The notes below the pieces were generated by a model. It did no database searches, was not told the origin of the DNA, and saw only the letters and a list, made by a program, of their open reading frames with translations. The position numbers and the translations under genes were made by a program. A DNA stretch of 64,000 bases, taken from Laetmonice hystrix. Lineage: Eukaryota. Position 1 is the first letter of the stretch; every line of letters begins with the position of its first letter. The DNA lies in contig OZ249436.1 in assembly GCA_965235115.1 (NCBI GenBank), positions 29,204,001-29,268,000 of the forward strand, written 5' to 3'. Below, one piece after another: positions 427 to 49,111 of this stretch.

Positions 427-675
427 ATCATGTACAGTATGCAATCCACGCCACTCTTCAGTTCCATACCTGTCTCCCAGCATGTCCTGAGCAGTATGCA
501 GAAGGACAGAAAGACATGTGACGTTTGTGGCAAACAATTCCAGTGCCCGGCCGAACTTAAAAGGCACCTGCTTGTACACACTGGAGAAAGACCCTTTTTG
601 TGTGGCATATGTGGAAAGGCCTTTAATAGGAAATACACTTTAAAAATCCACAAGAATACACATATTAATCATTAA
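427..675 (+). CDS. ZF exon 1: terminal exon, C2H2 pair
   Basis: gtctgtttgcag|ATC; CDVCGKQFQCPAELKRHLLVH-TGERPF-LCGICGKAFNRKYTLKIHKNTH; TAA. Confidence 0.85.
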   Translation: MMYSMQSTPLFSSIPVSQHVLSSMQKDRKTCDVCGKQFQCPAELKRHLLVHTGERPFLCGICGKAFNRKYTLKIHKNTHINH

Positions 676-901
676 TATAAGCATGCGGCATACTGTTTGT
701 AGATTTAAAACCGACTTGTAGTTTGACAAATTCGTGGTTACTGTGAAAACCTGTGGCTTTTGATGTGTAAGACAGTCAGTTATTGTGCCCGTGAACTAGT
801 GTTGGACTTGAGGCAGAATTACTGGAAGCGAAGATTGTGGAACACAAAACACACCAAGTTCAGACTCCTTATCAGGCTTGTTTTGTTTTTCATGTTTCCA
901 G

Positions 902-1126
902 GAAGGATTTTTGCCGTGCGGCTTGCTCATAGCCTCCTCTAAAGATCAGACAATGAAGAGGCCAGATTTGGTCTGCCAGTACTGTGGTAAAGATTTCCTT
1001 GGACCTGCTCACTTGAGAAGACACATGCTGATCCACACAGGAGAGAAACCATTCTCATGTGAAATTTGTGGCAAAAGTTTCAATCGGAAGGGAAACATGG
1101 TGCAACACCGCCAAATCCATAAATGA
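902..1126 (+). CDS. ZF exon 2: terminal exon, C2H2 pair
   Basis: catgtttccag|[42 protein letters not shown] at 1135. Confidence 0.85.
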   Translation, partial: EGFLPCGLLIASSKDQTMKRPDLVCQYCGKDFLGPAHLRRHMLIHTGEKPFSCEICGKSFNRKGNMVQHRQIHK

Positions 1127-1231
1127 CTTTTAAGAATAAAGTCGGGGGTAAAGGTTTACCTCAAAGACACTGGCGATGTCTTTTGAAATTTAAACTAAAA
1201 ATCCTGACAAGATCTTTTTTTCTGCTTGCAG

Positions 1232-1444
1232 AAAAATTATTCACAACTCATAAGAGGAACTGCGAACTTCATGAGGCAAGATTTGATTTGCCAGTACTGT
1301 GGGAAGGCAAATTTTTATAATGCGAGCGACTTGAGAAGACACTTGCGTATTCATACTGGAGAGAAACCATTCTCCTGTGAAATTTGTGGAAAAAGTTTCA
1401 ATCGAAAGGGAAACATGTTACAACACCGCCAGATCCATAAATGA
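1232..1444 (+). CDS. ZF exon 3: terminal exon, chimeric C2H2 pair (finger 1 like exon 4, finger 2 like exon 2)
   Basis: tttttctgcttgcag|[39 protein letters not shown]. Confidence 0.85.
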
Positions 1445-1545
1445 GCAGAATGAAGTCAGGAGTAAAGGTTTTTCTAAAAGACACTGGGGATGTCTTTTGA
1501 AAATGAAAGTGAAAATCCTGACCAGATTTTTTTTTCTGCTTGCAG

Positions 1546-1776
1546 AAAAAATATTTACATCCCGTAGGAGGAACTTCGAACTTCATGAGGCAAGATTTGG
1601 TTTGCCAGTGCTGTGGGAAGGCAAATTTTTATAATGCAAGCGACTTGAGAAGACACATGCGTATTCATACTGGAGAAAAACCCTTTTGCTGTCATATATG
1701 TGGAAAGAATTTTAATCTCAAGTCGAACTTGAAACGACATTGCCAACTGCACAAGAACCCGATGGACTCCATTTAA
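1546..1776 (+). CDS. ZF exon 4: terminal exon, C2H2 pair
   Basis: tttttctgcttgcag|[33 protein letters not shown]. Confidence 0.85.
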
Positions 1777-1840
1777 TTTGAATTATTTTGGCAGCAAAAG
1801 ATGAACTGAAATCTTACAAAGTGTTCAACTCTGCTTGCAG

Positions 1841-2113
1841 ATATACTCCTGGCAACCCAAGCCCAGGCAGACCAAGGATACGAGCTCAGCCCAGAAATTA
1901 GATGGTACATTGTTACAAAGGCAGGAAGACAAAAACTGTTCTTTTTGTTTCAGGCCTTTCCCAAATCGCAAAGATCTAATGCGTCATATCTTGACTCACA
2001 CTGGAGAGAAACCTTACCAGTGCGATATTTGTGGTAGGGATTTTAATCGTAAAGGGAACATGCAGCAACACAGGCAGAGACATTTGAATGAGTTTATTGA
2101 TAATCCAAAGTAA
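1841..2113 (+). CDS. ZF exon 5: terminal exon, C2H2 pair
   Basis: ctctgcttgcag|ATA; CSFC..NRKDLMRH-TGEKPY-CDIC..RKGNMQQH; no Met before finger 1. Confidence 0.85.
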   Translation: MYSWQPKPRQTKDTSSAQKLDGTLLQRQEDKNCSFCFRPFPNRKDLMRHILTHTGEKPYQCDICGRDFNRKGNMQQHRQRHLNEFIDNPK

Positions 2114-2485
2114 AGTATAGCCGTGTCAGGTTTGCATAGGACTTGAGCAAAGATTCTTAATATGGTAATACGGTAATGAAAAAACAGTATGTTTTGTTGC
2201 ATACTGTTCTATTTAAAAACTAATTAACATAGAAGATTCAAAGAAGTTATACTTATGACGCTGCGAGTATACCAACTAGTACTTATTACATGTGCCAGAC
2301 TTTGAAGCATCAATTTCAAGCCTGAAGAATAGTTTGTGCCACTTGAAACTGTGTTTTGGTAACATTTTATAGTGATCTGATTGTTGCCACCCCAAGGTCA
2401 AGTGAAAATAAAGTGTACCCAAAAATGTTTTGCTTCTCTTCATTAGATTTAACTTCTGACCAAGTGTTTTCCACTTTGTTTACAG

Positions 2486-2737
2486 ATTCACCCCTTCCTA
2501 CAAATAATGCCTGGAAACTTAAGTTCCCGTCAGTGTGCTGTTGATACAACAAGAAAGCCAAAAGATGGCGCTACATGTGTTTTATGTGGAAAAGTCTTTC
2601 AAAGTGCTAAAGACCTGGGGCGACATGTTCGAATTCACACAGGAGAAAAGCCTTACAGATGTGATGTTTGTGGGCGTGCATTTGCAACCAAAGGGAACAT
2701 GGTTGTTCACAAAAAGCGGCACTTTCAGGAGATATAA
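2486..2737 (+). CDS. ZF exon 6: terminal exon, C2H2 pair
   Basis: ccactttgtttacag|ATT in frame with ORF 2507-2737; [30 protein letters not shown]. Confidence 0.85.
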
Positions 2738-3004
2738 ATAGTTAAATAATTATCTGTGAAAATGACAGAAGAAACCATTTCGGAGAACAGTTTCTGTTTT
2801 ACCTCTTGATTTTATTAGAACCGAATGTTTTTGTTAATTTCGTAGGCAGCCTTTATGACTTGCCTTTTAATGCATGTAGTTCTGTTTTGTGAAGAATAGT
2901 CGGGACATTTGGCTTCGTTGTACTTGATTATCTGGAAATAAAGAAAGTCAAATACAGCAGAAAGAAGCAACTACCAGTAAACTAGGCTTTCTTTTTATTT
3001 GCAG

Positions 3005-3238
3005 ACGCCATGTCTGTTATATTCGTCACCAGCACTGCTCGTTCCGTCTCGTCCCCGAACAGGACCATGCGAGATCTGTGGGAAAAGCTTCACCAAACCC
3101 AGTGACCTACAGAGACACTTTCGAACCCACACAGGGGAAAAACCCTTTTTTTGCGATTTTTGTGGCAAGAACTTTAGTCTAAAATCAAACATGGTAAAAC
3201 ACATGAGAACCCATAGAAATCATTACTCACGGAAGTAA
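3005..3238 (+). CDS. ZF exon 7: terminal exon, C2H2 pair
   Basis: ctttttatttgcag|[33 protein letters not shown]. Confidence 0.85.
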
Positions 3239-3406
3239 ATGCATTTGGGTTTTTTTTACACACTGAAGGACGGGCAAAAGCAGTGACTGTCAGTAGTTTA
3301 CTGTGCCAATGTTTCCTCAAAAATGGCTGCAGCACGGAGTGGGAAGAAATACCTAAGTTCCAGATGTAAGATGTATGCTGCCATTAAATCTGCAATAAAG
3401 ATCTGA

Positions 3407-3652
<246 letters not shown>

Positions 3653-3685
3653 AAGTTGAGCACATTAACAGACAGGTGTTTCTGA

Positions 3686-3916
<231 letters not shown>

Positions 3917-5014
3917 GAAGTTGAGCACGTTAAACACTACACTTGTAATTTGTAGCGAAATTTATTATGTAAGGGCCTATACATAGATAGGCCACACCAA
4001 GTGGGGGACTAGAAGGTTAAAAACGCTCAATATTGAAAATAAAATTTAAAATGATTGATACGAATGCCTTTTTAATGGATAAAAAAATCGAAACTAGATT
4101 CATACGATTTTTGATGATGGCTTTAACATCAAAGGTAAAATATGAAATGTTCTAATTATCTTCATCCAAGATAATGTATTTTTTATAGCTGGATGATTGG
4201 TTATTGTCTGCCAACTCTCCTGCAGAATTATACGCATGTATAAATTATACATAGACATGTATCTTCATAAAGTTATACATGCGTATTACAGATGTATAAT
4301 TTTATAAGGATACATGTTGAGCTTAAATCATAAATTTGTCTTGAAGAAATTTTATGGTATGAAGTGACAAGCCGGTTGAGGTGCCTTTTATAATGGAAAT
4401 GACACAAAAAAAAGAACAGCTTCCCATTGGTCAATAAACTTAGTCAGTGGTTGGGCGTAGAAGGGACATATGGCTAATATGCCCGACAGTTGGGCATTAT
4501 GCCCGACAGTTGGGCGTATAGCCACTCCATCATCCAATACATGTCTACATGAATCTGTTAAAAAGCAGCGCAATATTTCAATACGTACCATGCTGTGAAA
4601 TAACCGTATCGAATGCTATAAGAGCGAAAGGGGCAAGTGTTCTGCAGTACTTTTAGGAAGATAGTGCTGCTTTGCCTTGTACATTAAGTTTTTGGATAAA
4701 AATATATCATCATTTAGGGATTAGGTGTTTCTGATTTCTTTTCATAAATCTGTTTGGTGGGGGAAAGAGTAGTAGCTGTATGCACGTGTGGCTTTAATCC
4801 AGTGTTACATGTTTTTAATCCTATTGCAACATATTTTGTTTGAAGCCAGACTGTAGATGTATCTTATTAAGAACATTTCAAATGCAAGTTCTTCTGGAAG
4901 GCCCTGCATTCCATTTTTAATGGGCTATGGAAATGCTGCAACTAGTTGAATGAAAGCTTGAGGAAATTTAACAGCAGCTACCATTGAACAGGTGCTCTTT
5001 TCTTCCATTTGCAG

Positions 5015-5227
5015 ATGGTATACCAATTGCAAACCTCAGCAATGGAAGCTCCTGGTCAGCCGAAAAGGCAGTGTCAGATATGTGGCAAAGGTTTCATCAG
5101 AGCTGCTGATCTCAGGAGACATATTCTTATACACACGGGGGAGAAGCCTTTTCATTGCGACATTTGTGGGAGAAAATTCAACAGAAAGTCAACAATGACA
5201 TGTCATATAAAAACTCACACAAAATGA
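5015..5227 (+). CDS. ZF exon 10: terminal exon, C2H2 pair
   Basis: tcttccatttgcag|[33 protein letters not shown]. Confidence 0.85.
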
Positions 5228-5426
5228 GTTAATATGGGCCTGCCTCATTTTTAGCGATGGTAGTAGAATAGGTCAGGCATTTCGATGATCATCAGATTAC
5301 TGCATGAGGGAAAACAAGTCTCGGATTGTTAGAACAGATGGTCAAGGAATATAAGTCCCGAGGTACCATAGGTGATGGACAGAGCTCTGGTTTTGATCAA
5401 GCCTGAATTTTTTTTTTCATTTTCAG

Positions 5427-5654
5427 ATGGCATTTCAATCGCAATATGAGCTAATGGCATCCCCAGGACAGTCAAAGTACGGATGCCACATGTGTGGGAA
5501 AATATTTACAAGGACTGGTCACCTGAAGAGACATTTCCTAATTCACACGGGAGAGAAGCCTTTTGATTGTTCCATTTGTGGTAAAAGGTTCAACCAGAAG
5601 GCTATTTTGACAAAGCATCTCAAAACTCATTCTAAACAAGCTCTTGATTCATAA
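5427..5654 (+). CDS. ZF exon 11: terminal exon, C2H2 pair
   Basis: tttttcattttcag|[33 protein letters not shown]. Confidence 0.85.
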   Translation: MAFQSQYELMASPGQSKYGCHMCGKIFTRTGHLKRHFLIHTGEKPFDCSICGKRFNQKAILTKHLKTHSKQALDS

Positions 5655-5714
5655 ACAAGGGATATGAAGAGTGTGAGGAAATTAAAAAGTTGCTGGTTTT
5701 TTGATCTGCAATAG

Positions 5715-6026
<312 letters not shown>

Positions 6027-6646
6027 GTGTATTGGTACTTGAATCGGAAATGAGTATTCACAACCTCGACTCGAAGGCCCAGAAAAAACTTTTTTGGAGT
6101 ATAAATGAAGAGACACAGAGACGGAGTGGTTTAAATACATCCGTACAGCAGACCATCTCAGAATTTCAGTAAATTAGAGTATAGGGGCCGTCTACTAAAA
6201 TATGAGATAACTTTAGTAGAAATCTTTGCTAAACAAACATTTATATTAAATTCCTACTGGTATTCGGCCAATGAGGCTTTTAGTGAGCAGATCATAGGGA
6301 CAAACTGATAGGAGGGAAGCCGATTTCATTGTTCGAAAAAGCGCACAACAGTGTGCGGTGTCACTTTCCCAGGCAGGGTTTCCTGGAGATTTTGGGTTGG
6401 GGGGGGGGGGTCTCCAAGAAAAAGGGCCTGCAGGAAACCCTCAGGAATCTAGCCGTTGGTTGGAATGGAAGAAAAAATTAAACGTTGGTTGCAAAGGAAG
6501 AAAACAGTTAGGAAAGTAAGGAAATTTTGCCTGTCACTTGGAAGAAAGAATGCTGCCATCATATTGCAAAATATATCCTCCCCTCTGATTTTCTGAAATA
6601 GTCCGAAGGGTCGCAAAATATAGCTGCTGTTTTCTTTCATTTGCAG

Positions 6647-6889
6647 ATGGCATACCAGGTGCAGCCATCAGAAATGGAAGCCTCCTCTTGTCAGCGAAAA
6701 GTGCAGTGTCAGATATGTTGCAAAAAGTTCACACAACCGTATAGCCTAAAGCGACATTTGCTAGTCCATACTGGTGAAAAACCCTTCTTTTGTAATATTT
6801 GTGGCAGGAGTTTCAATCAGAAGTCGATTTTGAAAACGCACTTGAAAGTGCACATGAAATGGGATATGAGGGAGAATACTGTGACGTGA
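6647..6889 (+). CDS. ZF exon 13: terminal exon, C2H2 pair
   Basis: ttctttcatttgcag|[33 protein letters not shown]. Confidence 0.85.
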   Translation: MAYQVQPSEMEASSCQRKVQCQICCKKFTQPYSLKRHLLVHTGEKPFFCNICGRSFNQKSILKTHLKVHMKWDMRENTVT

Positions 6890-7011
6890 TGAGTGAAGGG
6901 CAACCATGTCTGCGAAACCGGAAGCTCTAGGGAGCATTGCATCTTCCCTACATTACTACTAAGCAGTGCAATGGTGGATGCCTCTAAAAAAAGACCTACT
7001 TTCAATTTCAG

Positions 7012-7236
7012 ATGGCATTTATGTTAAATTCCTCATGGAATTCGGTCATCGAGGCTTCTAGTGAGCAGAAAAAACACCGGTGCAAGATATGTGGCAAAGT
7101 CTTTACAAAATTACATAGCTTGAAGAGACATACACGCACACACACCGGAGAAAAACCCTTTCACTGCAACATTTGTGGCAGAAATTTTAACCAGAAGTCA
7201 ACATTGAAGACACATAGCAAAACCCATAATTCATGA
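7012..7236 (+). CDS. ZF exon 14: terminal exon, C2H2 pair
   Basis: ctttcaatttcag|[33 protein letters not shown]. Confidence 0.85.
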   Translation: MAFMLNSSWNSVIEASSEQKKHRCKICGKVFTKLHSLKRHTRTHTGEKPFHCNICGRNFNQKSTLKTHSKTHNS

Positions 7237-7968
7237 GCGATGGTTCCTGGTCTCGTCGTTTTGTGGGCCCTTTCCATCTGGTACCATCCATTGATTTAAA
7301 CGACAGTGGTTGTTTTTTTTTTACTCGCATTTAACCTAGAAAAGGAAGGCGAGTTATTTATTTTAGTGATAGATGGCAGGCCCATGTTGAGGTTTCACAT
7401 GAGGGTTATTTTTAGTTCTTAGGTTTATTTGAAAGGTAAAACAAATGATCATATACATGTAACGGTACTCGACTTTGAATGGGATGGCGAGGTATTCTCA
7501 ACTGTAAGGCATCATGCATGATCTAGAACTGTTGGTCCTGCACTGATCGATCTCTGGCTTTGAGGATCAATACAGAATTCCTCGGAATGACAAGTGAAAG
7601 TTCACATTTCTACGCTTTTAGTGTGAAGCTTTGAGGATACATATCGTTATCCCTGACATAATCTTAAGAAGTCTGATTAAAAATCTGTTGGTTTAGATTG
7701 ATGGAAGTTAGGCAATACGATTGTATATGTGAACGTTTTGGTCTTCAAGATCAAGGTTACTGACATGTAAACCGTTGTGTAAATAAAGACGGCGTTTCAA
7801 TAACAATGAATGGATATGACTTGGAGTGAGATTATGTATGTAGGCAGATGTATGCTCACTTGATTTTTAAGTTTTCTTTTAGCCGTGTAACATACCTGCC
7901 TGTCTAAAGGGTTAAACGGAGGTGTTTTGGAAAGATATCTCTTGACACAAGATTTTCTGTATTTGCAG

Positions 7969-8295
7969 GTGGTAGGTCTTGGAAATAGACAGCCAGAAAA
8001 CTTAGAAAGTGATCTGTTTGAAGCAGAGTTGGGATCAAGCTCACAGGCCGGACATGTTTGCCAGATATGTGGGAAATCTTTCACTGGAGCATGGGCCATC
8101 AACCGACACATGCGCTCCCATACCGGAGAGAAACCTTTCAAATGCGAAGTGTGCAATAAACGTTTTGCTGAAAAGGGAAACTTGAAGCAGCACATCAAAA
8201 TCCATCTGAAACTTGATCGAATGGAGTCACAGGTTCCTCCAATCGGAACGTCCGAGGTCATTTCATTTCCGGTTCAGAAATACCCTCGGATGTAA
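7969..8295 (+). CDS. ZF exon 15: terminal exon, C2H2 pair
   Basis: ttttctgtatttgcag|[33 protein letters not shown]; no Met before finger 1. Confidence 0.85.
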   Translation: MVGLGNRQPENLESDLFEAELGSSSQAGHVCQICGKSFTGAWAINRHMRSHTGEKPFKCEVCNKRFAEKGNLKQHIKIHLKLDRMESQVPPIGTSEVISFPVQKYPRM

Positions 8296-8619
8296 GACAG
8301 GCCCAAAGCCCTGCCAAGTAGTTCCAGCAGATTGCGGAAACTTATAAATCTGACGCAAATTTAGTGCATTTTGGTTTATCCGTTAGTATTGAAGTGGGAT
8401 TTTGACACAAATTTCAGTCTTCTACTTGTGCAGTGAAGGCCTACATTTTGAACACTCATCTGTCACACGTCCTCCACTAAACATCAGTGTGAAAGAGTTC
8501 ACCATCTAAGATTCATATAACGTGCGGAAACTACTGGTAATGCTCAATCTTTAATCAACATTTACAATGGCTTGAGGGAAATAATTACTTCAGACGACAT
8601 CTAAAATGAAAAGCCGCTG

Positions 8620-9450
8620 ATGGCATCCAATGTTTTTAGACCTGCTTGAAAAGAGTTGAGGGAGGTAATGGCTCTAATATTGGGTGATAGAGAGTTCCCC
8701 TCAGTGACTCCTTGGTAAAACACATATGCCAGAATTAATTTTCTTTTGTTACACCTTAAACATAATACCAGTGCCCTGGTTAGTTTGTAGATCGCGATGA
8801 TCTGTCAGGCTTGTATCCTCTATACCACAACATAAAGTTTCAGAGATGTTATATGAACCTGAAGGCAAACATTCTGTAACCTTTTAATTTTGTTTAGTAG
8901 ATCTCTTGATCGATTGATGAAGCCTATGTCCCCAGAGTTCAAGTATGGAACAGTGGTGGTTGTTGTAAATATACCGGTAGTTGTGATTCGCTGATGTACG
9001 GTGGAGGTGAGCCTGGGAACTTATTTGATGACAATATGGCAGTATCGTCCTCAAGAAGGTGCCAGATTCCTTCGCTGCATTTTAGCTATTGTATCAATGC
9101 TTGACCTAATCGGTATGAAGCCACCTTGATTGCACGCTTTTAGAACATCTTATTGCCTTGTAGAAATTGCAGAATATGATGGACTATTTCTTTCTAACCG
9201 TTCACCTGGTAATGGAAGAAGAAATACTGGTCTTAAATTGCTGACAGACTTGTCTCCATCTTTCTGTAATGGGACTACCACAGACATTTTTTAATTTGGA
9301 AACTTCCCACTATTGAGAGATAGATTGAAGAGGGTCGTTTAGTTTATAAGTAAGTGATATGAAGGCATCATTTAATATTCTACCAGATAGATTGTTTATA
9401 ACGGATGAGTTACTTATATGGATGGCTTCACACACATCCATCACCTCGTT
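8620..9450 (-). mobile_element. Degenerate, internally deleted LINE (CR1/L2-type ORF2 reverse transcriptase remnant)
   Basis: Minus-strand translation near 9180-9340 gives FNLSLNSGKFP..KMSVVVPLQKDGDKSVSNLRPVFLLPLPGERLER (typical pre-RT motif of these LINEs); near 8630-8700 gives NSL..IRAITSLNSFQAGLK (ORF2 C-terminal motif); stops and frameshifts. Confidence 0.7.
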
Positions 9451-10649
9451 TCCACCTTGTGAGATACACCATCTCATGTCGCTGACACTATATTAGACAT
9501 GTATGCCCATACCGACCGCCTGCTGTCAACACAACTGCCATACCATCAGACGGACCCCCTGCTGTTATATTAGTTATTCATCAGTCACATATCCTAAGTT
9601 ACGAGTGTCCATAGGACCATCAGCTGGAATTAATTTAGACCATACACACCAAATAAACAAGTGTCCTTCCGGACTACCTGCTGTATCACTAGGGTTCTTA
9701 TCCGTACAGTTGTTGATACCTTTTACTACTTGTTCGAGTTACGGTTTATGGGGAGAAAGATAGATGGATTCTGTATCGGTATGACATTATGTCTGTGCAT
9801 TCAAAAAAAGGATTTACTACTTAGTTGTCAGGTGAGAGGTGATAAATAAGATTAGCCCTTGAAAATGTAGAGAGAGAAACCATAGAGAGAAGCCCTCTAA
9901 AACAATTGAACTGTTCAACTGACAGTGTGCCTTTCTGAATGGATCTGAGCCCAAATTTATTGAGTAAAACTTGTGTTATGTGTCGAATTATAAATCATGC
10001 AACACACTTTACTGGCCCATGGCCATTCCGATACTTCTTTAGATTTTAAAGTAGTGCATTGCACTATAAGTTATCATGCCCTTTGATAATTGCCCAATTT
10101 TTCTTCACCATATCAGAACATGAGGTCTGATACAATAATTTTACCAAATAATGGGATAATCCCAAAGAAATGCATCGTAGGAATATAGGAGTAAATTAAC
10201 CTAGATTTTAATTATTTCGAATCCAGAGTGACCTACTATCTTCGATATAACTGAAGTGTTTGGACCACGTGCATCGATGTAAACGTTGCCAAAGATAACC
10301 ATACCATATTGATGATGACTTGTTACAAAAAAAGGTTGCAGTTGTTCTGATTGTTAACTTGAGGGTCACATTCCACTGTTGTAATAGAGCGAAATAAAAA
10401 CAGAACTTTGAACCATTTCTTGGTTACTAATTTAATTACACAATTTTCCTCACTTAGACAGCCAAATGGGGAGCCTTTCAGTGTATTTAGCATTTGTGTT
10501 GTGTAGGGATAAAAAGATCAAAGAGAAAAGCTGATCTATTAAGGCCTACGTATATACAGCGAAAACGGAGGTTTTAAGTAGGAAATCGCCCTCTGTCACC
10601 AAAGCGACATGAAGTTAGAAATAGGACAAAGTGGACATTGTTACTTTGC

Positions 10650-10700
10650 ACTCTGCGGTCACACATGAGAGAAACCCTTTAGGCGAATGTCGTGTGCCAG
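10650..10700 (+). pseudogene. Decayed ZF cassette fragment
   Basis: ggt cac aca TGA gag aaa ccc ttt = GHT*EKPF, matching RGHTGEKPF of neighbouring exons 16/17 with a stop at the Gly codon. Confidence 0.5.
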
Positions 10701-10751
10701 ACAAAAAGGATTGCCAAGTAAAAGTGATGGAAATTCTATGCTTGCTTCCAG

Positions 10752-11006
10752 GTTACGCTTAGTCAAGTCCTACAAAATCTTCATGCACAGCCTCAGATTC
10801 TACCCAAGCACATTGCATCTGAAGGAAACAAAACATTTTCCTGTCAATTTTGTGGAAAAGCATTTAGGGCGCCATCCTGGCTGGCAATACATATGCGTGG
10901 TCACACAGGGGAAAAACCATTTGCATGTGATATCTGTGGGAAATGCTTTGCAGAAAAAGGGAACATGAAGAAACATCGGAACCTGCATAATAAGTATAAC
11001 ACTTGA
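10752..11006 (+). CDS. ZF exon 16: terminal exon, C2H2 pair (finger frame not in ORF track)
   Basis: tgcttgcttccag|[87 protein letters not shown]. Confidence 0.85.
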
Positions 11007-11152
11007 GTCAAAATACACCATGAAAACGCTGGTCCACAAGATGAACATTGACTGTGGTAAATGTGATAGTGGCCCCTATATCACCAGCTCATCTTTGGCC
11101 AGGGAGGACAGCATATGACCTGTACAATGATATTGAAAAGTAGGAAAAGAAA

Positions 11153-19871: not shown

Positions 19872-19930
19872 GAGTAGAAAAGATTTTTAATTATCCCAAG
19901 GTTTCATAGTAGATATTCTACTGTTTTCAG

Positions 19931-37971: not shown

Positions 37972-38734
37972 TAGCAAAGCTAATCATATGAGTGTTTCCA
38001 CATGCAAGTCATTTGGTGGATAAAGCTGAGGTCTATGGCGTGTATTTATTACGATCTCTACCCATAAGTATTATTATAAGGTTGTCCTAAATACTACTTG
38101 TCGATCACAAACCAATTGTGCTTTTACATTGAAATGGCTTGTGAGAGTATACTTCAAGAGCAGCAATCGGACTTAAGCAAGGATGTAAAATATTCTGCAA
38201 ATAGAGACTACACATATTTTTAGGTTGTAAATATAAGGTGTTGAGAAAGGAGAACCACAACAGCCTACTATGTCTTCGAGCAAGGACTGGTGCACAGGAG
38301 ACAGATCGATATTTCCGGATTTTACCATGTCACAGAACAAATTGACAGGGAGGTTGATGTTAGGGTGATGTAGTATTGTCAACTGCGTCCGAATGACTTT
38401 AAGGGCGATTGTGAACTGATGACGATTAGACAGATGTCACTTGGATGAGTAGGTCATTCCAGATTCTTCAAATTTGGGTCGCTTGCCTATAGTTCTCGGA
38501 AACCTGGCCGATTTTCTTTCTTTCTGTGTGTTTGTTTGTTTCTAAGAGGTAAATCTTAACCGAGGAGTTGTTTACATCGTGTCAGCCCTCAAAACACAGT
38601 TTGTTGTAATGGATTATCAAAACCTTGTTTCTAAATATAACACAATTTAGATGAAAGATTTCATTTTGTGTAGAATGTCGTTCTCTGCGAGGTTATCTAC
38701 TGACGAGCGAGGCTTAATACTGGTTTACTTGCAG

Positions 38735-39040
38735 ATGGATGTCTACAACCCGGGTGTCATGGCGGCCGCCCCTCGAACTCCCCTCGCAGGCCACCAGCGG
38801 TCGGCGCCATTGGCTACCACTGGCTCACTTACAAACAAACAGTGTACGCTGTGTGGCAAGGTCTTTCGGGATTCTTACCTGCTTAAAAGACACTTCAGAA
38901 GTCACACTGGGGAACGGCCTTTTAAATGTCCCAAGTGCGATAAAGGTTTTGTCCGCAAAGATAACATGCAGTCTCACCTACTGCTTCATGGAATCACCGA
39001 GTCCGGAGTGACTTCGATGTTCTCACAAGACACTGATTAA
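38735..39040 (+). CDS. ZF exon 45: terminal exon, C2H2 pair
   Basis: ggtttacttgcag|ATG; CTLC..DSYLLKRH-TGERPF-CPKC..RKDNMQSH. Confidence 0.85.
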   Translation: MDVYNPGVMAAAPRTPLAGHQRSAPLATTGSLTNKQCTLCGKVFRDSYLLKRHFRSHTGERPFKCPKCDKGFVRKDNMQSHLLLHGITESGVTSMFSQDTD

Positions 39041-39169
39041 AGATCAGTTCATTGGGCCATGAACGGACCCCATGAATTGCCCCCCCCCCCCCCCCCCCCC
39101 GAACAACGGGTGGATGAACATGGATGTATTTCAAGTTTACGATTGACCTTATCTTCTGTGTTCTTCCAG

Positions 39170-39436
39170 ATGCCTGTGTGGGATCAGAACCCTGGCCCCT
39201 CCTCAGTGGGCCGTGCTGGCGGCCGATCGGCTCGGATAAAGGAGTATAAAACGCGATTTACGTGCTCAGTGTGTGGGATCAGTTTTCGCGATTCTTACTG
39301 CCTTGAGCGACACGTGCGGTGCCACACGGGGGAGAGACCGTTTGGCTGTTCAGAGTGTGAAAAGACATACAAACGATCAGACCATTTGATTGCTCATATG
39401 GCCAGGATCCATGGCAAAACTAAATCTGCTCGGTGA
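39170..39436 (+). CDS. ZF exon 46: terminal exon, C2H2 pair
   Basis: ctgtgttcttccag|ATG; CSVC..DSYCLERH-TGERPF-CSEC..RSDHLIAH. Confidence 0.85.
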   Translation: MPVWDQNPGPSSVGRAGGRSARIKEYKTRFTCSVCGISFRDSYCLERHVRCHTGERPFGCSECEKTYKRSDHLIAHMARIHGKTKSAR

Positions 39437-40353
39437 TTGACAAGTATCTGTGGGTACTTCAGAAAGTCCGCAATATCATAGAGGTGGGACTTATGCCTGC
39501 CCACCCTGGCGCATTGTAGTGCATGGCTCTTTTGGTTCAGAAGCAGGTTGCTGATAATCTAGACACAAGAAATAAAATGTTCAATGATAAACAGTATCTT
39601 TTATGTACAAAACAGTAGTGTACATTTGTAGTTTGAAATTTCAGTGATTCCCGAAACCGTGGCACTCCTTCACCGAAAACAATTTTACTTGCACATCAGT
39701 AGACTTGAGAATCCGTAATAAACTTCAAGATTGTAAACAATATATCTCCTGCTTTCCTTTACATGAAAATCGACTGACAGATTGGGACTTGAATTTCTCT
39801 GAATTCAGTCTTGTGTGTTGACACTGAGAAAACGTAGTCTGGGTGGCCTGGAGGTGACGACGAGGAGGTTGAAGATTGTGATATCGATATGTGGCAGCCT
39901 TCTAGGTCTGGTTCATGTGATATAGGAAATATTGTGGTTGCAGGAACAACTGATGTTAGAGGTTACTGGTTGTGTTGCCTGTGGTGAGAATTTTTGTAAG
40001 GAGCATTACACATGAACCTCATCGATGGAAGCAGTTATTACGCTACCTTGAAATATCCATCTTTGGATCCAGCATTGGGTTTGGATAGGAATGTGACATG
40101 TTTATCGATATCATTCCGTATGGCAGAGGTTCTTGAGTTATGTCGACGCAACGAGATCATTTTTCTCACCTACCCTTTTCCCCTGGGGGCCCCATACAGA
40201 GATTCTTGTATCATGCGAGGTTCCCTTTCATCATAGGGACCTGTCGATGACAATCTAACCCCAAACACACGCAGGAACCCCGCCGAGGACACCAATTGCT
40301 GATTATCGCTTGCAGAATGATCTGAAGTTAATGATTCTTCTGTGTTCTTCCAG

Positions 40354-40641
40354 ATCCCCGCATGGGATAACGATGCTATCCCTGCAGCTGTGGGGAGGTC
40401 CACTCACGCGCTTGGCCAGAGAGTTTGGGCAGGTTCATCGAAACCTCAGTTCTTTTGCACTGTCTGTGGAAAGTCGTTCCGAGATAGTTATCATCTAACG
40501 AGACACATGAGGAAACACACAGGGGAGAGGCCGTACGTCTGCTCGCTGTGTAAAAGAACCTTTACCAGGAAGGAATACCTAGCATCTCATGTATCGGGAG
40601 TGCATTCGGTTCCCACTGGTCCCTCGTCGAACATAAAGTGA
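40354..40641 (+). CDS. ZF exon 47: terminal exon, C2H2 pair
   Basis: ctgtgttcttccag|ATC; CTVC..DSYHLTRH-TGERPY-CSLC..RKEYLASH. Confidence 0.85.
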   Translation: MPAWDNDAIPAAVGRSTHALGQRVWAGSSKPQFFCTVCGKSFRDSYHLTRHMRKHTGERPYVCSLCKRTFTRKEYLASHVSGVHSVPTGPSSNIK

Positions 40642-42649
40642 CATTTTTTGTAGCTTAACTGGAGAGAATATGAGAAAGGTGGCACTGGTAAGGTGGAAGG
40701 TTACGCAGCCGTTATGGGCAGCTGTGTGTGTGTGGAGTTGTTACTGGCTGGAGTTTGTGGGGAGCTCTACTTGAATACCGCAGGCAAGGTCGGGCCTTTT
40801 TCTTTTCTTTTCGTTTCTCCGTGCGTTTTTCCCGGGTTGCCGGAACGTCCGCCACCTTGGGAGGTGGGGCCTATGCTGTTTCCCAGTCATTTAGATGGAT
40901 GTTAATTTTTATTAGGTTATTCGCTGCTCTTCTTAGTACTTTTATGTTGTTTGAGAATAATTGTGTGGTCAGGGTTTTCGTACTGCCGTCCCGGGGCATT
41001 CCTCCATTACGTGTTGTTGGGTCTCATCCTCATGGCCACACACCCTACATTGGATATTTATATATTTGTTTTTATAGTTGGCATTGGTTTTCATCATTCT
41101 CGTCCTTGCCATGAATAGTGCACTTGCTTGGTTCCTTGGTAGTTTCTGTAGGTATTCCGGAATATTCTTTTCCTCTTTGTTTTTGTTCGTTATTAGGAAT
41201 GTGTATTTGGATTTGTGTTGTCCTTCCGTTCTTGTTTTCTCCTGCCGTACGTATTCAAGCGAAGTTCGTGGTTTTAACCTGTAGTGATAATCTCGAATGT
41301 TTGATTTAAACAGTGTGGAGACATAATTTCTGTGGATATAAGTATTGATACTGTTCCTCTTTAGGTTCCAGTGCTATCCCGAAGGGAAGCACTCAGGATA
41401 AGTTAAATAACTCATGACCGAAAATGGATACAGTGCCCATTCTTGGAAATGTATTTCCTTCGTCATGGATGGGTTACTACGATGTAAAATATACTAATTA
41501 GAGAAGACGTTTCACCATGCAGTTACATGGTATACACACCATGACAGGATAAACATGCAGAGTGTGCATATAAGTTCACGGTAAATAGTTCAAGGCCGAA
41601 AACCTATACACCGTGACGATACTTTGTCATTTATTTTCCCTTGTCATGGTTCGCCAGTGGCCTATTTATATTCACACAGACAGAGACTGTTACAGGTTTA
41701 TTACGACGCTAGAGTGCAGCCAAGTGTGTTATAGACATGTAACTATCATACCAGAGTGGGTTTACCAGGGGTTTTCCCAAAACGGAATGATGAACACAGA
41801 ATCGTGACCAGGTAACTATTACACAGCTCTCCAACGATCATCTCATAATACTGGACCGTTTGAACCAAAACAAGCATCGGTCCAGGCTGGGTTCTTGTGC
41901 ACGAAGGGGCAGGTTCTTACAGAAAACACGGTTATATATAGGCCACGTATGCCAAATGCAACATGCCGGAAACTAAAATAGCATCTTGTATACGCATTGT
42001 GAAAAAGTAAGTAAACTGTCAATAAATCTGTTCGCAATTCGAAGGAGGATGATCAAAATGAAGAAGATGATTACATATACTGTGAAATTTTAATGATGTT
42101 AAGAAATAAATGTTTATTAACCTTGACTTTAATTATGGAGGTCTACATTTTTGTCGCTTATAGAACTATTAGGTATCATTGCCTGACATATTAAACGGGA
42201 CTTGAATATTGATGACAAAGATCAGGGACACAGGGGGGAATTCAGTTTGAAGTCAGCGGTTAGGATTGCCCTGGGCCTCGAGTGGGACGGGTGGAGAAAC
42301 CAATGGGTAAGGACAGGGTGACCGTAAGAGGGCACGCATCAGGCAAATATTAACATATCCGTCGTTCCCGGCAGAAAGACCACCAGCTTTTGTTAGCCCG
42401 ATCGAAGCTTTAAACGTCAAAATATATCCATTTAGAAGCCTGTTCGGAAACCAATAAAAAAACGTCTTCGTTGTTGCTTTGTGTTACTTTTACGATACGC
42501 ATAAATTTCGTATGAAAAAAGAAAACCTCGCATAACACGGAAAACATTACTCTTACTCAAGTGGATTTCGTTGAAGGAGAATGTAAACATTGGCATTGGT
42601 AGGCGCCACTTTGATTTGCCCCACCCCAAATAATTCAGCGACTCTAACG

Positions 42650-43020
42650 CAATAGTTACTGTTATCAACAGATAGGAAGTCATATATGAAGTTTCATTTA
42701 GCGCCATTTTCCATGACCTTGAGTGACCTTGAAAGGTCAATCAAGGTCGTGCATATTTTTATTGGCCTGTACCTCCAAGCCAGTTGAAGATAATATCTAA
42801 TATTGCATGGAATATTACATAATAACCAGAGACAGTCTAAGGAGGACACAGGTCAAACATATCATTAAAAATGGCCGCTTGGTGGCCATCTTGGATATAA
42901 AGAAATTTGAAGCAATAACTCCGACAACATTTTCTGGATTTCGTTCTTGGTGACAGAAGACATATATATGAGGGGCAACAAGCATGCCAAAAGTATGCAT
43001 AGTTTCTGGACGCACAGTTA
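42650..43020 (+). mobile_element. Fragment related to the internal repeat of the 25598-27657 element
   Basis: gataggaagtcatatatgaagtttcattt..gaccttgaaaggtcaatcaaggtc..aaaatggccgcttggtggccatcttgga closely matches ~26980-27320. Confidence 0.7.
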
Positions 43021-45003
43021 AAGCAACGAAAAATAATTATATCACATAGGGCTGCACTGGTAGTCTAGACCAATCCTATACCTTGCACCTTGGACCTCTT
43101 AAAAAAATCAGAAAAAAATGATCAAAAAAGTAATCGTTAAAAATCCACCGCTACTCCTCAGCGGCCCTTCTCTGCCATCTTGTGCCAAGAACATGGGCTT
43201 CCCCACTTGGCAAATGACGTCACTTGTGCGTATCCCATTCCATGTGGCAGGACAAGGTGTCCAAGCAGTGACGCGGCAGCAGCAGCGACCGAGAGCCGCC
43301 AACATAGTTATTTATAGCGCTGGTCTTCGACAGCCGACAGCCACACCCTGGCATGTTGACTCAGTCGACAGTCCCTACCAGGGACGGATCCAGAGACAAG
43401 GCCTGACTGTAGCTCAGGACTGACAGTCTCAGACTGCAGCTGAGGGTGACGGTCAGCCGCGAACAGCCCCCAAAGCAATGCTGGGGTGGGGGCTGACTGC
43501 GTGTCGCTCAAGCTGCCTGAGCGACAGTCTAGATCCGCCACTGCCTACTACCTCGTCTGTAGGCCTACACATTATTACGAACCTCTCCCTGTCTCGACCC
43601 CACTAGACTCCAGTACTGTTAAAACTTGGACTAAAGTCGACTTGTAAAGTTGTATAGGAGGCCTGTAGACGCGTATGAAGGATACCAAGTTTTACCCTGA
43701 ATGAATGGCAGCAGACTTAGTGACGTCATTAGTCCTGGAATTCCGCTCTTTTTTGATTGGTTAATACGATGGGCGTGGCAAAAATGGCGGTCTACTCCAA
43801 TATTCGGGCCTTCTATAGAGCATACCTCTTTCTATTATCGAATTCTCTATTCTGAACAGCCTATTGGGTTCAATTTTGGGCTGGAAAGAAGCTTTAAGGT
43901 AAGAAGCACATGTACAGACAGCTGAAAAGCTAATATTTTGCCTTTCTTTAATATAGTCCCTACTCAGCTGCTGGGGCTGTGACTCCGACGGTGTCTTGTT
44001 TTAAAGAGGCAGGCAAGATTCCTTTGAACACCAGCAATACCATGAGAAGTGTCTAAGGTCGCGCCGATAAGTGGAACACTGTCTAAGGCGACTTTTAAAA
44101 ATACCGTATGGGTCATTCACTGGTTTCATGGGACTCTCACTCACTCACTACGACTGCACTACTGACTGTGTACTCTTACCGGTGACAGCAGACACCTTTT
44201 TCTCTCTCTTGACACCCTTATTGGGGCATGTTAACAAATACAGAGTTTGTGTGCGGCTATCGTTTGCAACCCTCTCTGAAATCGTCAATGAATCTGTTGC
44301 CATCATGGACATGTTTCTGGTAAAAGTAGAATCGCGGCGGTACTTGAATAGCGGCAGTCTGGCTGGGAATCTGCGTGGTTCGTTCCGCCTGGCGGCCACA
44401 TAACAATTCGTGGACAAGTAGGGCAGACAAGCAGACGAAGCCAGCGGGAGAATGTCTAGCTACATTTCAGTTGACTATTTATTAAAGATCAGACCATCAC
44501 ATGATTGTAGGTAGGAACAAGCTTGTTCATGCTGAACACCCTTATATTGATAGTTTGAACTTTTCGGTGACCTTTAACGTAAAGCGGTATATAAGATACC
44601 ACGCGAGTCAAGTTCAGGTGCTGTGGAAGTTTCTTGGGTGGACGAGACAGGATGGGCTGGCGATGTCAACTTGACATGTCAGGGTCAGGTCCCCTCCCCC
44701 ACTTCACCGACACTATGTATCTGTGATATGAAAAGTCCTAGACATGTCCTTCCCTTACTGCTACTTTTGTTGATTTTGATCTAATTACTGCCTTTATCCA
44801 CAAGTTTCTGAACCGCACAAGCAAAATGAGGGGAGGAATCACATGTACACAAAGGTCCAGTCACATTCACAAGATCGGCCTAGAGAGATCTATGCATGGT
44901 CTACAGGCCATGTCTGTCCATCCCCCGGTTCAACGCCCGTTCGTATACTCTAATCGGATCGGCGGTGTCGACCCTCTCAGTTGATGCACCTTTTTGTTTT
45001 CAG

Positions 45004-45267
45004 GGGGCGCTTCAAATGCGACGTCGGTACTTCGGCTCGGCGCCAGGTGACAGCCGGAAGGAATGCCATACATGCCAGATCTGCGGGCGGTTGATGGCAG
45101 ACAGGGCCAAACTGAAGCGCCACCTGTTAACACACACAGGAGACAAACCGTACATCTGTCCAAGGTGTGGCCGCGGGTTTTCGCAAAAGTGCAACATGGA
45201 ACGTCACCACCAACGAATGTTGTGCACGGACCCTGATCCGAAGACTTCCGCGAGCGACATCCCTTAG
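45004..45267 (+). CDS. ZF exon 48: terminal exon, C2H2 + C2HC-like finger
   Basis: tttttgttttcag|GGG; CQIC..DRAKLKRH-TGDKPY-CPRC..QKCNMERHHQRMLC. Confidence 0.85.
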   Translation, partial: GALQMRRRYFGSAPGDSRKECHTCQICGRLMADRAKLKRHLLTHTGDKPYICPRCGRGFSQKCNMERHHQRMLCTDPDPKTSASDIP

Positions 45268-45334
45268 AGTTAGAATATAGGCATTACAATCGGTCTTCTG
45301 GACATGACTGATGGCTGCATCTTTGTACTTTCAG

Positions 45335-45592
45335 ATGGTCACACCACTTGGCCAGACGGACAACACCTTTGAGCAGCCTCGAACTGGCAGTAGTATGGGG
45401 CGAGCTCCGGGTCATACTGGATTCACATGTACGACGTGTGGTCAGAAGTTTGCCTATCTGTCGTACTTGAAAAGACACATAGTGCAACATACCGGAGAAA
45501 AACCATTCGTGTGCCATGTGTGTTCCCAGGGTTTCACCCGAAAATCTACTCTGGCGAAGCACATGAAATTTCACTATACGCCCACTCCTTAA
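45335..45592 (+). CDS. ZF exon 49: terminal exon, C2H2 pair
   Basis: ctttgtactttcag|[33 protein letters not shown]. Confidence 0.85.
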   Translation: MVTPLGQTDNTFEQPRTGSSMGRAPGHTGFTCTTCGQKFAYLSYLKRHIVQHTGEKPFVCHVCSQGFTRKSTLAKHMKFHYTPTP

Positions 45593-45805
45593 ATTAATGA
45601 CGGCGAAGTTACCATAAAACTAGCTGTTTCAATGATCTGCCACCCGACGCGGCGTATAGAACACATGTTGGAGGGAACCAACAACTTTTTTGACCCGTTT
45701 TCACTCAGAGGGCTGTTAACAAGGAGCAAACGTGATGCCGTCTCGACTCTACCATGTGACCAACTTTGAACCGTCGCTTACTGTCATGGCCGTTTGTGTT
45801 TGCAG

Positions 45806-46027
45806 GGGACGGACCAGCTGCGAACGACCACCAGCAGTGACAGAGGTGATACGTCAAAGAAAGGATCTCAGTGTAAGATCTGTGGTCGCATAATTGTCAC
45901 TAAACTGAAGCGCCACCTGCTAACACACACTGGAGACAAACCGTACACCTGCCAAATGTGTGGCCGGGGGTTTTCGCAAAAATGTAACATGGACCGACAC
46001 CAGCAACTGTGTGGACGTCGTCAGTGA
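45806..46027 (+). CDS. ZF exon 50: terminal exon, shortened C2H2 + C2HC finger
   Basis: gtttgtgtttgcag|GGG; CKICGRIIVTKLKRHLLTH-TGDKPY-CQMC..QKCNMDRHQQLC. Confidence 0.8.
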   Translation, partial: GTDQLRTTTSSDRGDTSKKGSQCKICGRIIVTKLKRHLLTHTGDKPYTCQMCGRGFSQKCNMDRHQQLCGRRQ

Positions 46028-46514
46028 GTGACTGGTGGATCTTTGTGTCTTTGACGACCACAGGAGTACGGCTTCTTCAGGCTCGTTTATGAAACTAGAA
46101 AGTGCCCTACACTTTCAGAGGATTTGTGATGTCGTTTGCTTTCGTTGACTGCGGGCTTTACTAATTGTTTTACTCACGCTCGGAGGTCAGGGGCTGAGGT
46201 ATTGTCAAGGGTTTCAAACTATATATCTGTCAAACCAAACAAGGTTAATTCTATTGTTAGCACTGGCATGTCAATAATACATATTTCAAATTAATACATC
46301 TGTTCTGATTCTCGACGAAAGTTTCTTAAAAATATGTAGATCTAGGTCGTAATTGTGAAGAAGTTGAGGTCAGACTCGGTGTGTGCAGAGAACGGCCACT
46401 TACTGGCACACGTGAACTACAACAACTATCGAGTGACGTGTTTTATCTGTCGTCCTGGATCTTCATCAGTATGTACGTGACCAGGCATACAATCTACGTC
46501 TCTCAATCCCCACC

Positions 46515-46839
46515 AGGCACGTAGCTTCCATTAGGCAATGTAGGCACGTGCCTACACATTTCCCCCCAGAAATGAAAAGATATAAATAAAAATATAAAAC
46601 AAACAATAAGATGAGATGGCGGTTATTATGTCTAGGGTATGTGTAAAATTAAATTTAAAGTAGATTCTATAGCGTACCGGAATTTCCTTTTCCTAAACGC
46701 GAGTTCCTTACTCCGAACGCTGGCGTTTTTATTGAGCCTCAAAGTCCTACCTGGATTGACAGTCATGTGCCAACACAGACTGCCCCAGAGCCCCATGTAA
46801 AAAGTGCCGACACATTTATTTCAGCCAAGCTACGCCCCT
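46515..46839. mobile_element. Probable MITE
   Basis: Imperfect inverted ends caggcacgtagct / agctacgcccctg; no clear target duplication. Confidence 0.35.
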
Positions 46840-47548
46840 GCCCATTGACAAAGAAAGGAAGACCCTCCTGGCGAGGAGAAACACTTTGAAATTCTGCTGA
46901 TCTTATCTACTTACCATTGTATATGATGTGAAAATAAACGATATTTAAAATAAAATAACATTATGATCGACAGTTGTATACCTGTACTCAGTTCAAACTG
47001 TCCAAAGAATTCAGCATGGGATATTACCCAGGTTACTTTGGATGGGGTCAGTCGCAGTGTCCGTTCAAATGCTCCGATATATTTCAAAAGGCGTACGTTA
47101 CAGCGAGTTGCCGACTTTCTTTTTTCATCACCCCCCTTGGTTTTCTTTAGGGGATGGCAAAACACGTGTCTGTTGGTACGCTCGTCCATTCGTATCCATA
47201 CCATACAAAATGAACAACTCTATAGAGGCTCTGACTCTTCGGCTTCTTTTGTCCAGTAAAGTAGAACACTCCTCCGGCATCCTAGAGATTGCTTTACAAT
47301 TTTTGTTATGGCCGTATTGGTTTTGCTGATAATGGTGCAATTTTCCCTGTCTTGCAGCGTACAGAAGTATTACTCTTTTGCTCATAATATTATGTACGAT
47401 GGTGTCTGCATTTACAGGTAAACCAGCACACACTTTTTATTGGTGTGTGTGTGGGGGGGGGGGGGAGGGGGGATCGGCCCTAGAACTAGATTATCCGGTT
47501 GAACGCTCTGTAACTAAGTGAATAAGTTGCATTCCTTCTCTATTACAG

Positions 47549-47842
47549 ATCTGTGGGAACTTTACCCAAGGTTCTCAGTCGGAACCTGCTGGACTGGGTT
47601 CACAGCATCAGTCAGTTCAAGGGTCAGGAAGAATCGTACACTCAGGAGGCTCACTGATAACCAAGCAGGCGCCGATTGTTTGCAAGGTCTGCAGTAGGGT
47701 CTGTAGGTGTCCCTCACAACTGAAGGTCCATCTCCGCTCTCACACAGGCGACCGTCCTCATGTTTGTCCAATTTGTGGCCGATCGTTCACTCAGATTGGG
47801 AATATGTCGCGTCATCTTAAACAACTGCATCATGCAAATTAA
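47549..47842 (+). CDS. ZF exon 51: terminal exon, C2H2 pair (not in ORF track)
   Basis: ttctctattacag|ATC; ICGNFTQGSQSEPAGLGSQHQSVQGSGRIVHSGGSLITKQAPIVCKVCSRVCRCPSQLKVHLRSHTGDRPHVCPICGRSFTQIGNMSRHLKQLHHAN*. Confidence 0.85.
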   Translation: MCGNFTQGSQSEPAGLGSQHQSVQGSGRIVHSGGSLITKQAPIVCKVCSRVCRCPSQLKVHLRSHTGDRPHVCPICGRSFTQIGNMSRHLKQLHHAN

Positions 47843-48913
47843 TTCATGGATATATTCAAGAGAGGAAAGAAGAAATCGTTTGCTGTGACAGGGCTTTCAA
47901 AATAAGCCGGCGGCCGGATCCGGGCAACCGGCGCAGGTTACTTTAACGGAATCCCTGGCATGCATGGATTGTGATGGCGCCTATACTTTAACCGAATCCC
48001 CGCCTACTCAAAAAACAGTGATCTTATTCGTTCGTTTTTGTACTTAGTTGACAAGTTGTGCTGTACTTTGCCGAATGTGGATGATTAGTATTCGCGGAAT
48101 GTAATACACAGAATCGGACATTATGTACGTGGAGAACCCGCCATTCCTCAATTGCGTTTCTATTAAAACAAGTTAAGCATTAAACTTTGTTGCAGACACC
48201 ACTATAATTGTATGGCGTCGAGTAATTTTACCACTCATGTCTAATGAACTTTGTATATGTTTTTAGATTAGATACAGCGTTAGATATTTACGCCCAGCTA
48301 GTAATATAGATATTGGCCAAGTTCAGTGTGTGCAAACTCCTTGAATTCTCTTCATTCCTTCACTCAGGAGATTTTTCATCATCAGGAGACCTACATTCAC
48401 CGGTGGACATCAGTGTTTCTCAAAGTGGTTATGCCTTCCTTTTATCATGCATTGAATTAAGGGAAAAAAGGTTTGTCTGCGAGGGTGTGTCCTTGGCTTC
48501 TGGCATCACCTAAAGTATTGGGTGAAAGTAGCAGTGGGGGATCCATGACTTTGATAAGGGGGGCACCCAAAATATTTTTAGCTTCGCTACGCCCTACGAT
48601 TGTGCCTGTATTACGCACACAAAATAATTGCTATTAAATGTTTTATTTTATTCAAATACTATATATATATATATTATTCAAATATAGTAACATCTTCATA
48701 AAAAAAGAAAGAAAACCTCAGGGGGACCCTGCCCCCCCCCTGCATGGAGTCCCGGGGAATAGTGATATCAGTTGGGCAGCGTGTATTACCTTCGTGTCAT
48801 CAGGAGGCAGACGATCGATCAAGATGAGCCGTAATTTGATGAGAAGATTTGTTTTTCGGTCTCTTTCAGACCTTCTTGACCGTGAAATATATATCTCGAC
48901 CGTTATCTTGCAG

Positions 48914-49111
48914 CAGCCCGTGGCTGGGAGCTCGCCGAGCGGCCGCTTCGCATGCCCCACGTGCGGTAAGGTGTACTTCTTTCGCTCCAAACTGGAGGCT
49001 CATCTGATCACCCACACCGGCGAACGACCATACATCTGTCCAATCTGCGGCGCTGGCTTCAGTCAGTCTGGCTCCATGCGGCGGCATATCAAGACGACAC
49101 ACACCAAGTGA
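48914..49111 (+). CDS. ZF exon 52: last terminal exon of the array, C2H2 pair
   Basis: cgttatcttgcag|CAG (tandem CAGCAG acceptor); CPTC..FRSKLEAH-TGERPY-CPIC..QSGSMRRH; ATTAAA at 49161. Confidence 0.8.
   Translation, partial: QPVAGSSPSGRFACPTCGKVYFFRSKLEAHLITHTGERPYICPICGAGFSQSGSMRRHIKTTHTK

Follow-up and report, generated by a model that had tools for sequence, protein, structure and literature searches.

In Drosophila, lola couples a constant N-terminal part to alternative 3' exons encoding C2H2 zinc fingers, giving 20 isoforms, 17 of them fingered, by cis- and trans-splicing (available portions of 10.1101/132027 and PMC11426971). The mod(mdg4) locus has one common part and 31 alternative ends, carries a BTB domain and mostly FLYWCH modules, and is described as using trans-splicing only, with U1-binding intron motifs; for its silkworm locus, more than 200 isoforms are cited (available portion of PMC13490949). 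TTK-type BTB proteins are stated to be found only in arthropods (PMC11426971, same portion). Here we describe a gene of similar layout in a lophotrochozoan, Laetmonice hystrix, centered on an array of two-finger C2H2 cassettes in a window of 64,000 nucleotides (contig OZ249436.1, here C1, positions 29204001-29268000 of the 627 Mb genome). "Window" denotes that whole stretch, and positions without a prefix are counted from its first base. We consider it highly probable that a single donor, at the end of an upstream "head" exon, splices to any one of 87 two-finger exons that serve as alternative last exons.

The gene resembles lola in its constant 5' coding part, single donor, and phase-matched alternative 3' exons, and its variable exons likewise encode different finger modules: recognition-residue sets were distinct in 80 of 80 canonical cassettes, and DNA binding by these endings is predicted from their sequence. 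Unlike lola, it has no BTB domain, has one coding head exon, and carries 87 endings that are all two-fingered. Since BTB was sought in the head by Pfam scan and was absent, the gene does not belong to the TTK-type BTB-zinc-finger genes (lola, mod(mdg4), fruitless, and broad), and its host lies outside the arthropods. Given the isoform number cited for silkworm, the array is no record for the design; it is the largest among the arrays examined here, and what is new is its size and its acceptor signature. In contrast to mod(mdg4), no U1-binding motif was found in the first 1.5 kb of the head intron (the U1-complementary 9-mer had 0 matches there and 5 hits in 19 introns), and all 87 cassettes lie on one strand here; trans-spliced loci of that type may have cassettes on both strands, internal promoters, and interallelic products. 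Vertebrate clustered protocadherins, in which tandem variable exons are spliced to a constant part, offer another likeness; they are a mirror image, with variable 5' exons that have their own promoters, and encode cell-surface proteins. A literature search by titles and the starts of abstracts, in a collection with few subscription papers, found no description of the head family or of this layout outside arthropods.

Head exon, cassette array, and acceptor phase

A six-frame scan located 52 two-finger cassettes at 427-49111, all on the plus strand. Another 35 precede the window (about C1:29177096-29203520, plus strand; 34 with a phase-0 TTNCAG acceptor and one with TTTTAG), giving 87 in total and none on the minus strand. 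The window thus covers the downstream 60% of the gene: intron and array continue into it from upstream at 1..420, and the array of 52 alternative last exons occupies 421..49111. Between 49111 and the following head, which lies 59 kb beyond the window, no further plus-strand two-finger cassette was found, and a search of the array for non-finger exons returned three chance-like candidates, none convincing. Every cassette consists of a short linker (12 to 59 codons in the window), two C2H2 fingers, and a stop. The finger pattern was present in 87 of 87, zf-C2H2 scored above cut-off in the single cassette scanned, and no cassette had a strong donor (score >5) inside its coding part.

Numbered in order and given from first exon base to stop, cassettes 1 to 6 lie at 427-675, 902-1126, 1232-1444, 1546-1776, 1841-2113, and 2486-2737; 7 to 12 at 3005-3238, 3437-3652, 3701-3916, 5015-5227, 5427-5654, and 5790-6026; 13 to 18 at 6647-6889, 7012-7236, 7969-8295, 10752-11006, 11489-11731, and 12241-12510; 19 to 24 at 12807-13079, 13265-13534, 13784-14032, 14679-14954, 15357-15599, and 15905-16153; 25 to 30 at 16544-16822, 16989-17240, 17515-17769, 18117-18362, 18688-18933, and 19249-19506; 31 to 36 at 19623-19871, 19931-20164, 20622-20894, 22666-22995, 24999-25346, and 28832-29035; 37 to 42 at 29278-29529, 30261-30485, 31232-31450, 33412-33630, 34099-34353, and 34509-34766; 43 to 48 at 34911-35165, 37669-37971, 38735-39040, 39170-39436, 40354-40641, and 45004-45267; and 49 to 52 at 45335-45592, 45806-46027, 47549-47842, and 48914-49111, all on the plus strand.

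A first-pass annotation of the window had claimed that all 52 acceptors are TTNCAG in phase 0. Each does lie inside an open frame (52/52; TTGCAG 23, TTCCAG 14, TTTCAG 12, TTACAG 3), and its tally of first codons was reproduced exactly (ATG 18, ATH 15, GTN 10, ACG 3, other 6). Its observation that the diverged linkers stay open in frame also held: when translated in the two alternative frames, 57 and 59 of the 87 linkers hit stops. The annotation had worried that picking acceptors by eye favors in-frame sites, a concern refuted by two phase-blind tests. Scoring of AG sites with tabulation of their phase, which it had proposed as a check, was carried out over the 220 nt before finger 1 with hand-set weights that were not species-trained. 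The best AG was in phase 0 in 47 of 52 window cassettes, compared to 318 of 830 for all AGs (38%; binomial p = 6e-15), with misses in cassettes 15, 32, 45, 50, and 52; among TTNCAG hexamers near finger 1, 53 of 58 were in phase 0. Across the full array, the corresponding values were 75 of 87, compared to 545 of 1,471 AGs, and 91 of 100 hexamers. In the adjoining DENND4-like gene, 6 of 17 acceptors were TTNCAG (junctions were placed by homology, and a few may be off), so cassette acceptors are stricter than those of ordinary introns.

The same annotation had inferred a common upstream coding exon ending in a phase-0 donor, and such an exon was found 31 kb upstream of the window. The head exon spans C1:29171961-29172865 on the plus strand (L004:7961-8865), its start placed from an acceptor at L004:7960. 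Its coding part, C1:29172071-29172865, opens with an ATG at L004:8071 and comprises 265 codons: a head domain of about 55 residues (L004:8071-8235, plus strand), which bears no Pfam name, and then an acidic low-complexity linker. The phase-0 GT donor, at L004:8866 on the plus strand, precedes window base 1 by 31,134 nt; the nearest acceptor follows after 4.2 kb and the farthest after 80 kb. A single head domain was found between the head exon and the end of the array. Conserved short motifs were seen in the otherwise variable linker of this head and its homologues, namely IKxE-like, AGQRR, EPPxKR, and PGCSSW directly before the donor; the IKxE-like motif may be a SUMO site and the basic motifs may be nuclear signals.

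Acceptor use in transcript-like contigs

Contigs from one sequencing run, X4, were aligned to window positions 401-20400, beside two DNA-like runs; the head donor lay outside this reference. Its size (58 million letters versus 517 and 599), word share of 0.87, and acceptor-anchored ends led us to treat X4 as RNA-like, and bins without X4 cover were not counted as evidence. No RNA data set was listed as containing the head exon. Three contigs began at cassette acceptors, aligning from 2485 (cassette 6), 7968 (cassette 15), and 19930 (cassette 32), and were preceded by 27, 11, and 27 foreign letters, respectively. For cassette 15, this end favors the acceptor before 7969 over the phase-2 site at 7883 that the blind score had preferred. 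One base of the intron is included in each of the three alignments, which fits a partner whose last bases are CG, like those of the head exon, rather than AG. A fourth acceptor, that of cassette 25, was reached by an X4-only joint, 16207->16542 (sliding by up to 2 places). Among the four acceptors used, two belong to cassettes lacking Met (15 and 25) and three were not top-ranked by the blind score. Further examples of the join come from related sequences. In contig L076, from another organism, the head exon continues directly into a finger at the equivalent point, and a finger cassette in phase 0 lies unused further 3'; contig L078 carries head and fingers within one frame; and the NCBI model P0200 of Lamellibrachia satsuma joins a head to two fingers at the equivalent point. 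The partner of the present cassettes is thus probably the present head exon, and the earlier reading that the cassettes are kept in frame with a shared coding exon is supported.

These data also bear on an explanation that the first-pass annotation had left open, in which a spliced leader or non-coding leader exon precedes each cassette and yields a tiny stand-alone two-finger protein. The short foreign 5' ends of the X4 contigs (11 to 27 letters) would suit such leaders, as would the AG|ATG start of 30 of 87 cassettes. That frequency is near the roughly 26 expected from independent base preferences at exon positions +1 to +3, and Met comes first in 7 of 99 cassettes of the paralogous arrays described below. 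The seven exons that the annotation had named as lacking Met before finger 1 do lack it, but its list was incomplete: 17 of 52 window cassettes are Met-less (5, 7, 15, 16, 17, 19, 22, 23, 25, 29, 34, 41, 43, 47, 50, 51, and 52), 13 of them with no in-frame ATG in their entire open frame, as are 26 of 87 in the full array, including the two whose acceptors X4 uses. The phase is fixed, though it would be irrelevant behind a non-coding leader, and a coding head exon of matching phase exists. Spliced leaders are reported absent in an annelid, "similar to other annelids" (available portion of PMC7854359). We therefore regard leader-driven mini-proteins as very unlikely.

The joint into cassette 25 leaves the 3' region of cassette 24 and so connects neighboring cassettes, as expected if they were internal exons chained into a long multi-finger protein. 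It begins 54 nt behind the stop of cassette 24, and chaining is contradicted by the stop in every cassette and by the lack of strong donors in the coding parts; we give it practically no credence. No placement of this joint (16207-16544) yields GT..AG on the assembly, so the joint may reflect an allele that has a donor there, or else an artefact of the contig. X4 contigs also run unspliced across the acceptors at 5790, 7012, and 11489, which fits 3' untranslated regions reading through later cassettes or unspliced precursor.

Under the favored explanation, the single coding exon of head domain and acidic linker would end at one phase-0 donor that splices to one of 87 last exons, each supplying a linker, a pair of fingers, and a stop. 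With a single donor, and a stop at the end of every cassette, the choice would be mutually exclusive. The products would be proteins of about 330 to 420 residues with a common N-terminus and differing DNA-recognition helices, the head perhaps serving as an interaction module in the role that BTB plays in lola, by analogy. Such a choice would require skipping up to 86 acceptors. We lean toward joining in cis, and take joining in trans, or a mixture, to be a serious possibility; no sequence evidence for trans joining was found in the strand distribution of the cassettes or in a 9-mer scan of the intron start.

Several observations weigh against this explanation. The X4 results come from the 8 records listed out of 31, in a run whose type is not on record, and the letters of the three foreign ends were not read, so that their assignment to the head exon is indirect. 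P0200 is a gene model, the library types of L076 and L078 are unstated, and L076 is transcript-like. The layout is not universal in the family: 29 of 55 metagenome loci had a phase-0 site as their best donor, and long single open reading frames (ORFs) seem to be common among them. Poly(A) signals were not enriched behind the cassettes, occurring in 44 of 86 gaps versus 37.8 in shuffles and, within 300 nt, 32 times in sense versus 32 in antisense, with none in 34 of 48 short gaps. Many cassettes may therefore lack a poly(A) site of their own, unlike classic last exons. The result fits long read-through precursors with competing cis acceptors or separate acceptor transcripts joined in trans. Finally, the top GT score in the head ORF belongs to a phase-1 site within the head domain (3.7 versus 2.6). 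The terminal phase-0 donor is preferred over it for three reasons: in an alignment of 25 sequences, with homologues read from genomic DNA, conservation stops there; 109 of 116 homologues carrying the preceding motif show the V-G/S/R/C expected from read-through of a phase-0 GT; and, among 20 paralogues examined out of the 39 matches, 18 have a phase-0 site as their best donor near the ORF end.

Selection, turnover, and the acceptor signature

Selection was analyzed in the 80 canonical cassettes, excluding 7 with altered spacing. Over 10 close pairs, dN/dS was 0.33; recognition positions had 0.61 and the remaining positions 0.27. For 42 of the 80, the nearest relative lies at most 3 places away (7% expected). 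Local tandem duplication expanded the array, and purifying selection maintains it, with DNA-contact positions changing faster. Recent whole-cassette duplications are visible as a 264-nt unit at 97% identity (cassettes 8 and 9, 3422-3933) and a 314-nt unit at 86% with mosaic fingers (cassettes 2 to 4, 1011-1717). Turnover has left two decayed remnants and one stub, compared to 87 intact cassettes: one remnant, at 24485..24574 on the plus strand, has partly lost its zinc ligands, shows no acceptor, and stands outside the count of 52, and the stub, at 18582..18629 on the plus strand, is a fingerless copy of codons 1 to 16 of cassette 30.

The acceptors also differ between arrays at positions not used to select them; positions -6, -5, and -3 entered the selection and are not counted as evidence. 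In the present array (n = 87), 72 acceptors have T at -11, 71 at -9, 21 at -8, and 73 at exon +2. The same positions carry T in 23, 22, 92, and 20, respectively, of 99 acceptors from four paralogous arrays (Fisher p from 3e-16 to 3e-23, not corrected for kinship). Fourfold sites are near saturation, differing in 0.70 of pairs in one big array and 0.69 in the other. The pattern persisted when cassettes with related linkers were collapsed: the counts at -11, -9, -8, and +2 were 43, 45, 16, and 46 in 54 clusters here and 6, 6, 23, and 6 in 23 clusters of the neighboring array. Leave-one-out assignment returned 78 of 87 acceptors to the present array but separated the other four arrays poorly, which suggests that there are perhaps two acceptor classes rather than a separate code for every gene; another paralogue has two near-identical acceptors resembling the type found here.

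The conserved non-coding acceptor positions, set against saturated fourfold sites, also speak against the proposal that each cassette is a small gene of its own, or a duplicate in decay, with the head serving the first few only. The remnants and stub, together with the X4 contigs that cross three acceptors unspliced, are what such a history could leave behind. Intact cassettes outnumber remnants 87 to 3 with dN/dS at 0.33, and X4 uses acceptors 33 to 51 kb from the donor; the proposal has very little probability in our judgment.

A coding origin of the signature was considered and rejected, with in-frame stops at most 20 codons upstream in 61 of 87 cassettes (54 and 56 in the other frames). 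No docking site specific to the array's own head was found by 9-mer complements, duplex energies, or reverse-complement matrix scans, which compared own with cross pairings for two and then five heads, using ungapped matrices over the head exon and 2 to 4.7 kb of intron. A complement-like stretch about 65 to 85 nt into the own intron was set aside, as other arrays score equally or better on it. On a plain reading, two founder acceptors became entrenched in different pyrimidine-tract registers; on a bold one, the signature would be an address read by a locus-linked factor. Such an address would be needed if heads and endings join in trans. We consider doubtful the idea that a lola-like system arose independently in lophotrochozoans around this unnamed head, with dozens of heads and hundreds of endings in one genome and with array-specific acceptor addresses (T at -11, -9, and exon +2 here; T at -8 in the four paralogous arrays) by which each donor finds its own endings.

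The head family, its arrays, and neighboring sequence

Neither the 265-residue head nor its first 60 residues matched a Pfam family at E up to 5. The fold predicted for residues 1 to 60 is helix-strand-strand (mean pLDDT 84), with a domain of 55 residues. Structural searches gave no match at E <0.001 and none at Z 5 or more, the best being Z 4.4 (rmsd 2.5, 53 aligned); a likeness to the MADS-box helix-hairpin (Z 3.2 to 3.5) was within noise. The best sequence match had E 0.65, a search for the head domain found no match in phages, and a homodimer prediction made without alignment gave no clear answer (score 0.02 against a mark of 0.32). A profile of the domain retrieved 1,830 representatives at E up to 0.001. 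In a second search, three of the 120 proteins listed carry names, and these come from two tubeworm species (siboglinid annelids; the placement is supported for Lamellibrachia, and we take Ridgeia to belong there too). Entries P0177-P0241 include dozens of similar head proteins of 350 to 430 residues, with scores near those of the tubeworm entries; several share the longest-contig size, and they may represent many species, individuals of one group, or tandem head copies.

Within the genome, the head domain has 39 matches, mostly on C1. Finger cassettes were found behind 9 of 20 paralogous heads examined, numbering 51, 27, 15, 9, 4, 2, 2, 2, and 2 in the stretches fetched, most of the remaining paralogues being viewed over 10 kb only. 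The neighboring paralogue, with 51 cassettes on the minus strand 110 to 155 kb past the window, had its blind-scored acceptor in phase 0 in 45 of 51. This neighbor, at C1:29377000-29427022 (minus strand; L051-L054 and L022), converges on the present locus and includes some three-fingered cassettes. Another, at C1:29327427-29361000 (plus strand; L031 and L047-L049), has 2 finger cassettes and at least 4 non-finger exons of about 220 codons, which encode a related non-finger domain.

Tandem repeats occupy 25759-27181 (468-nt unit, 3 copies), 50274-53551 (258-nt unit, about 11 copies, 95%), and 56226-58361 (372- to 394-nt units, 2 copies). A high-copy repeat at about 8238-8375, at and just past the end of cassette 15, has a DNA depth >3000, compared to about 60. 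A weak zf-RVT match under the cut-off (E 1e-5; 40972-41373, minus strand) is probably a decayed LINE end within the array. Upstream of the head (L005-L019) lie retrotransposon-like ORFs of 2,134 and 1,363 codons, Harbinger-like pieces, and exons resembling DENND4, for which the best named matches of one exon were molluscan, mostly at 60 to 67%. Other exons there resemble what we take to be an APC11-like RING protein and a small nuclear ribonucleoprotein RRM protein.

If the favored explanation is correct, the way of multiplying transcription factors known from lola and mod(mdg4) would not be restricted to arthropods, and it would operate on an unrelated head domain, with 87 endings here and, across nine paralogues, at least 114 further finger cassettes. 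Such head-finger proteins would escape gene counts and annotations: a finger is included in 5 of 248 proteins that are head-domain matches or cluster members. How one donor selects among dozens of distant acceptors would become testable, with hundreds of natural acceptors and array-specific signatures at hand.

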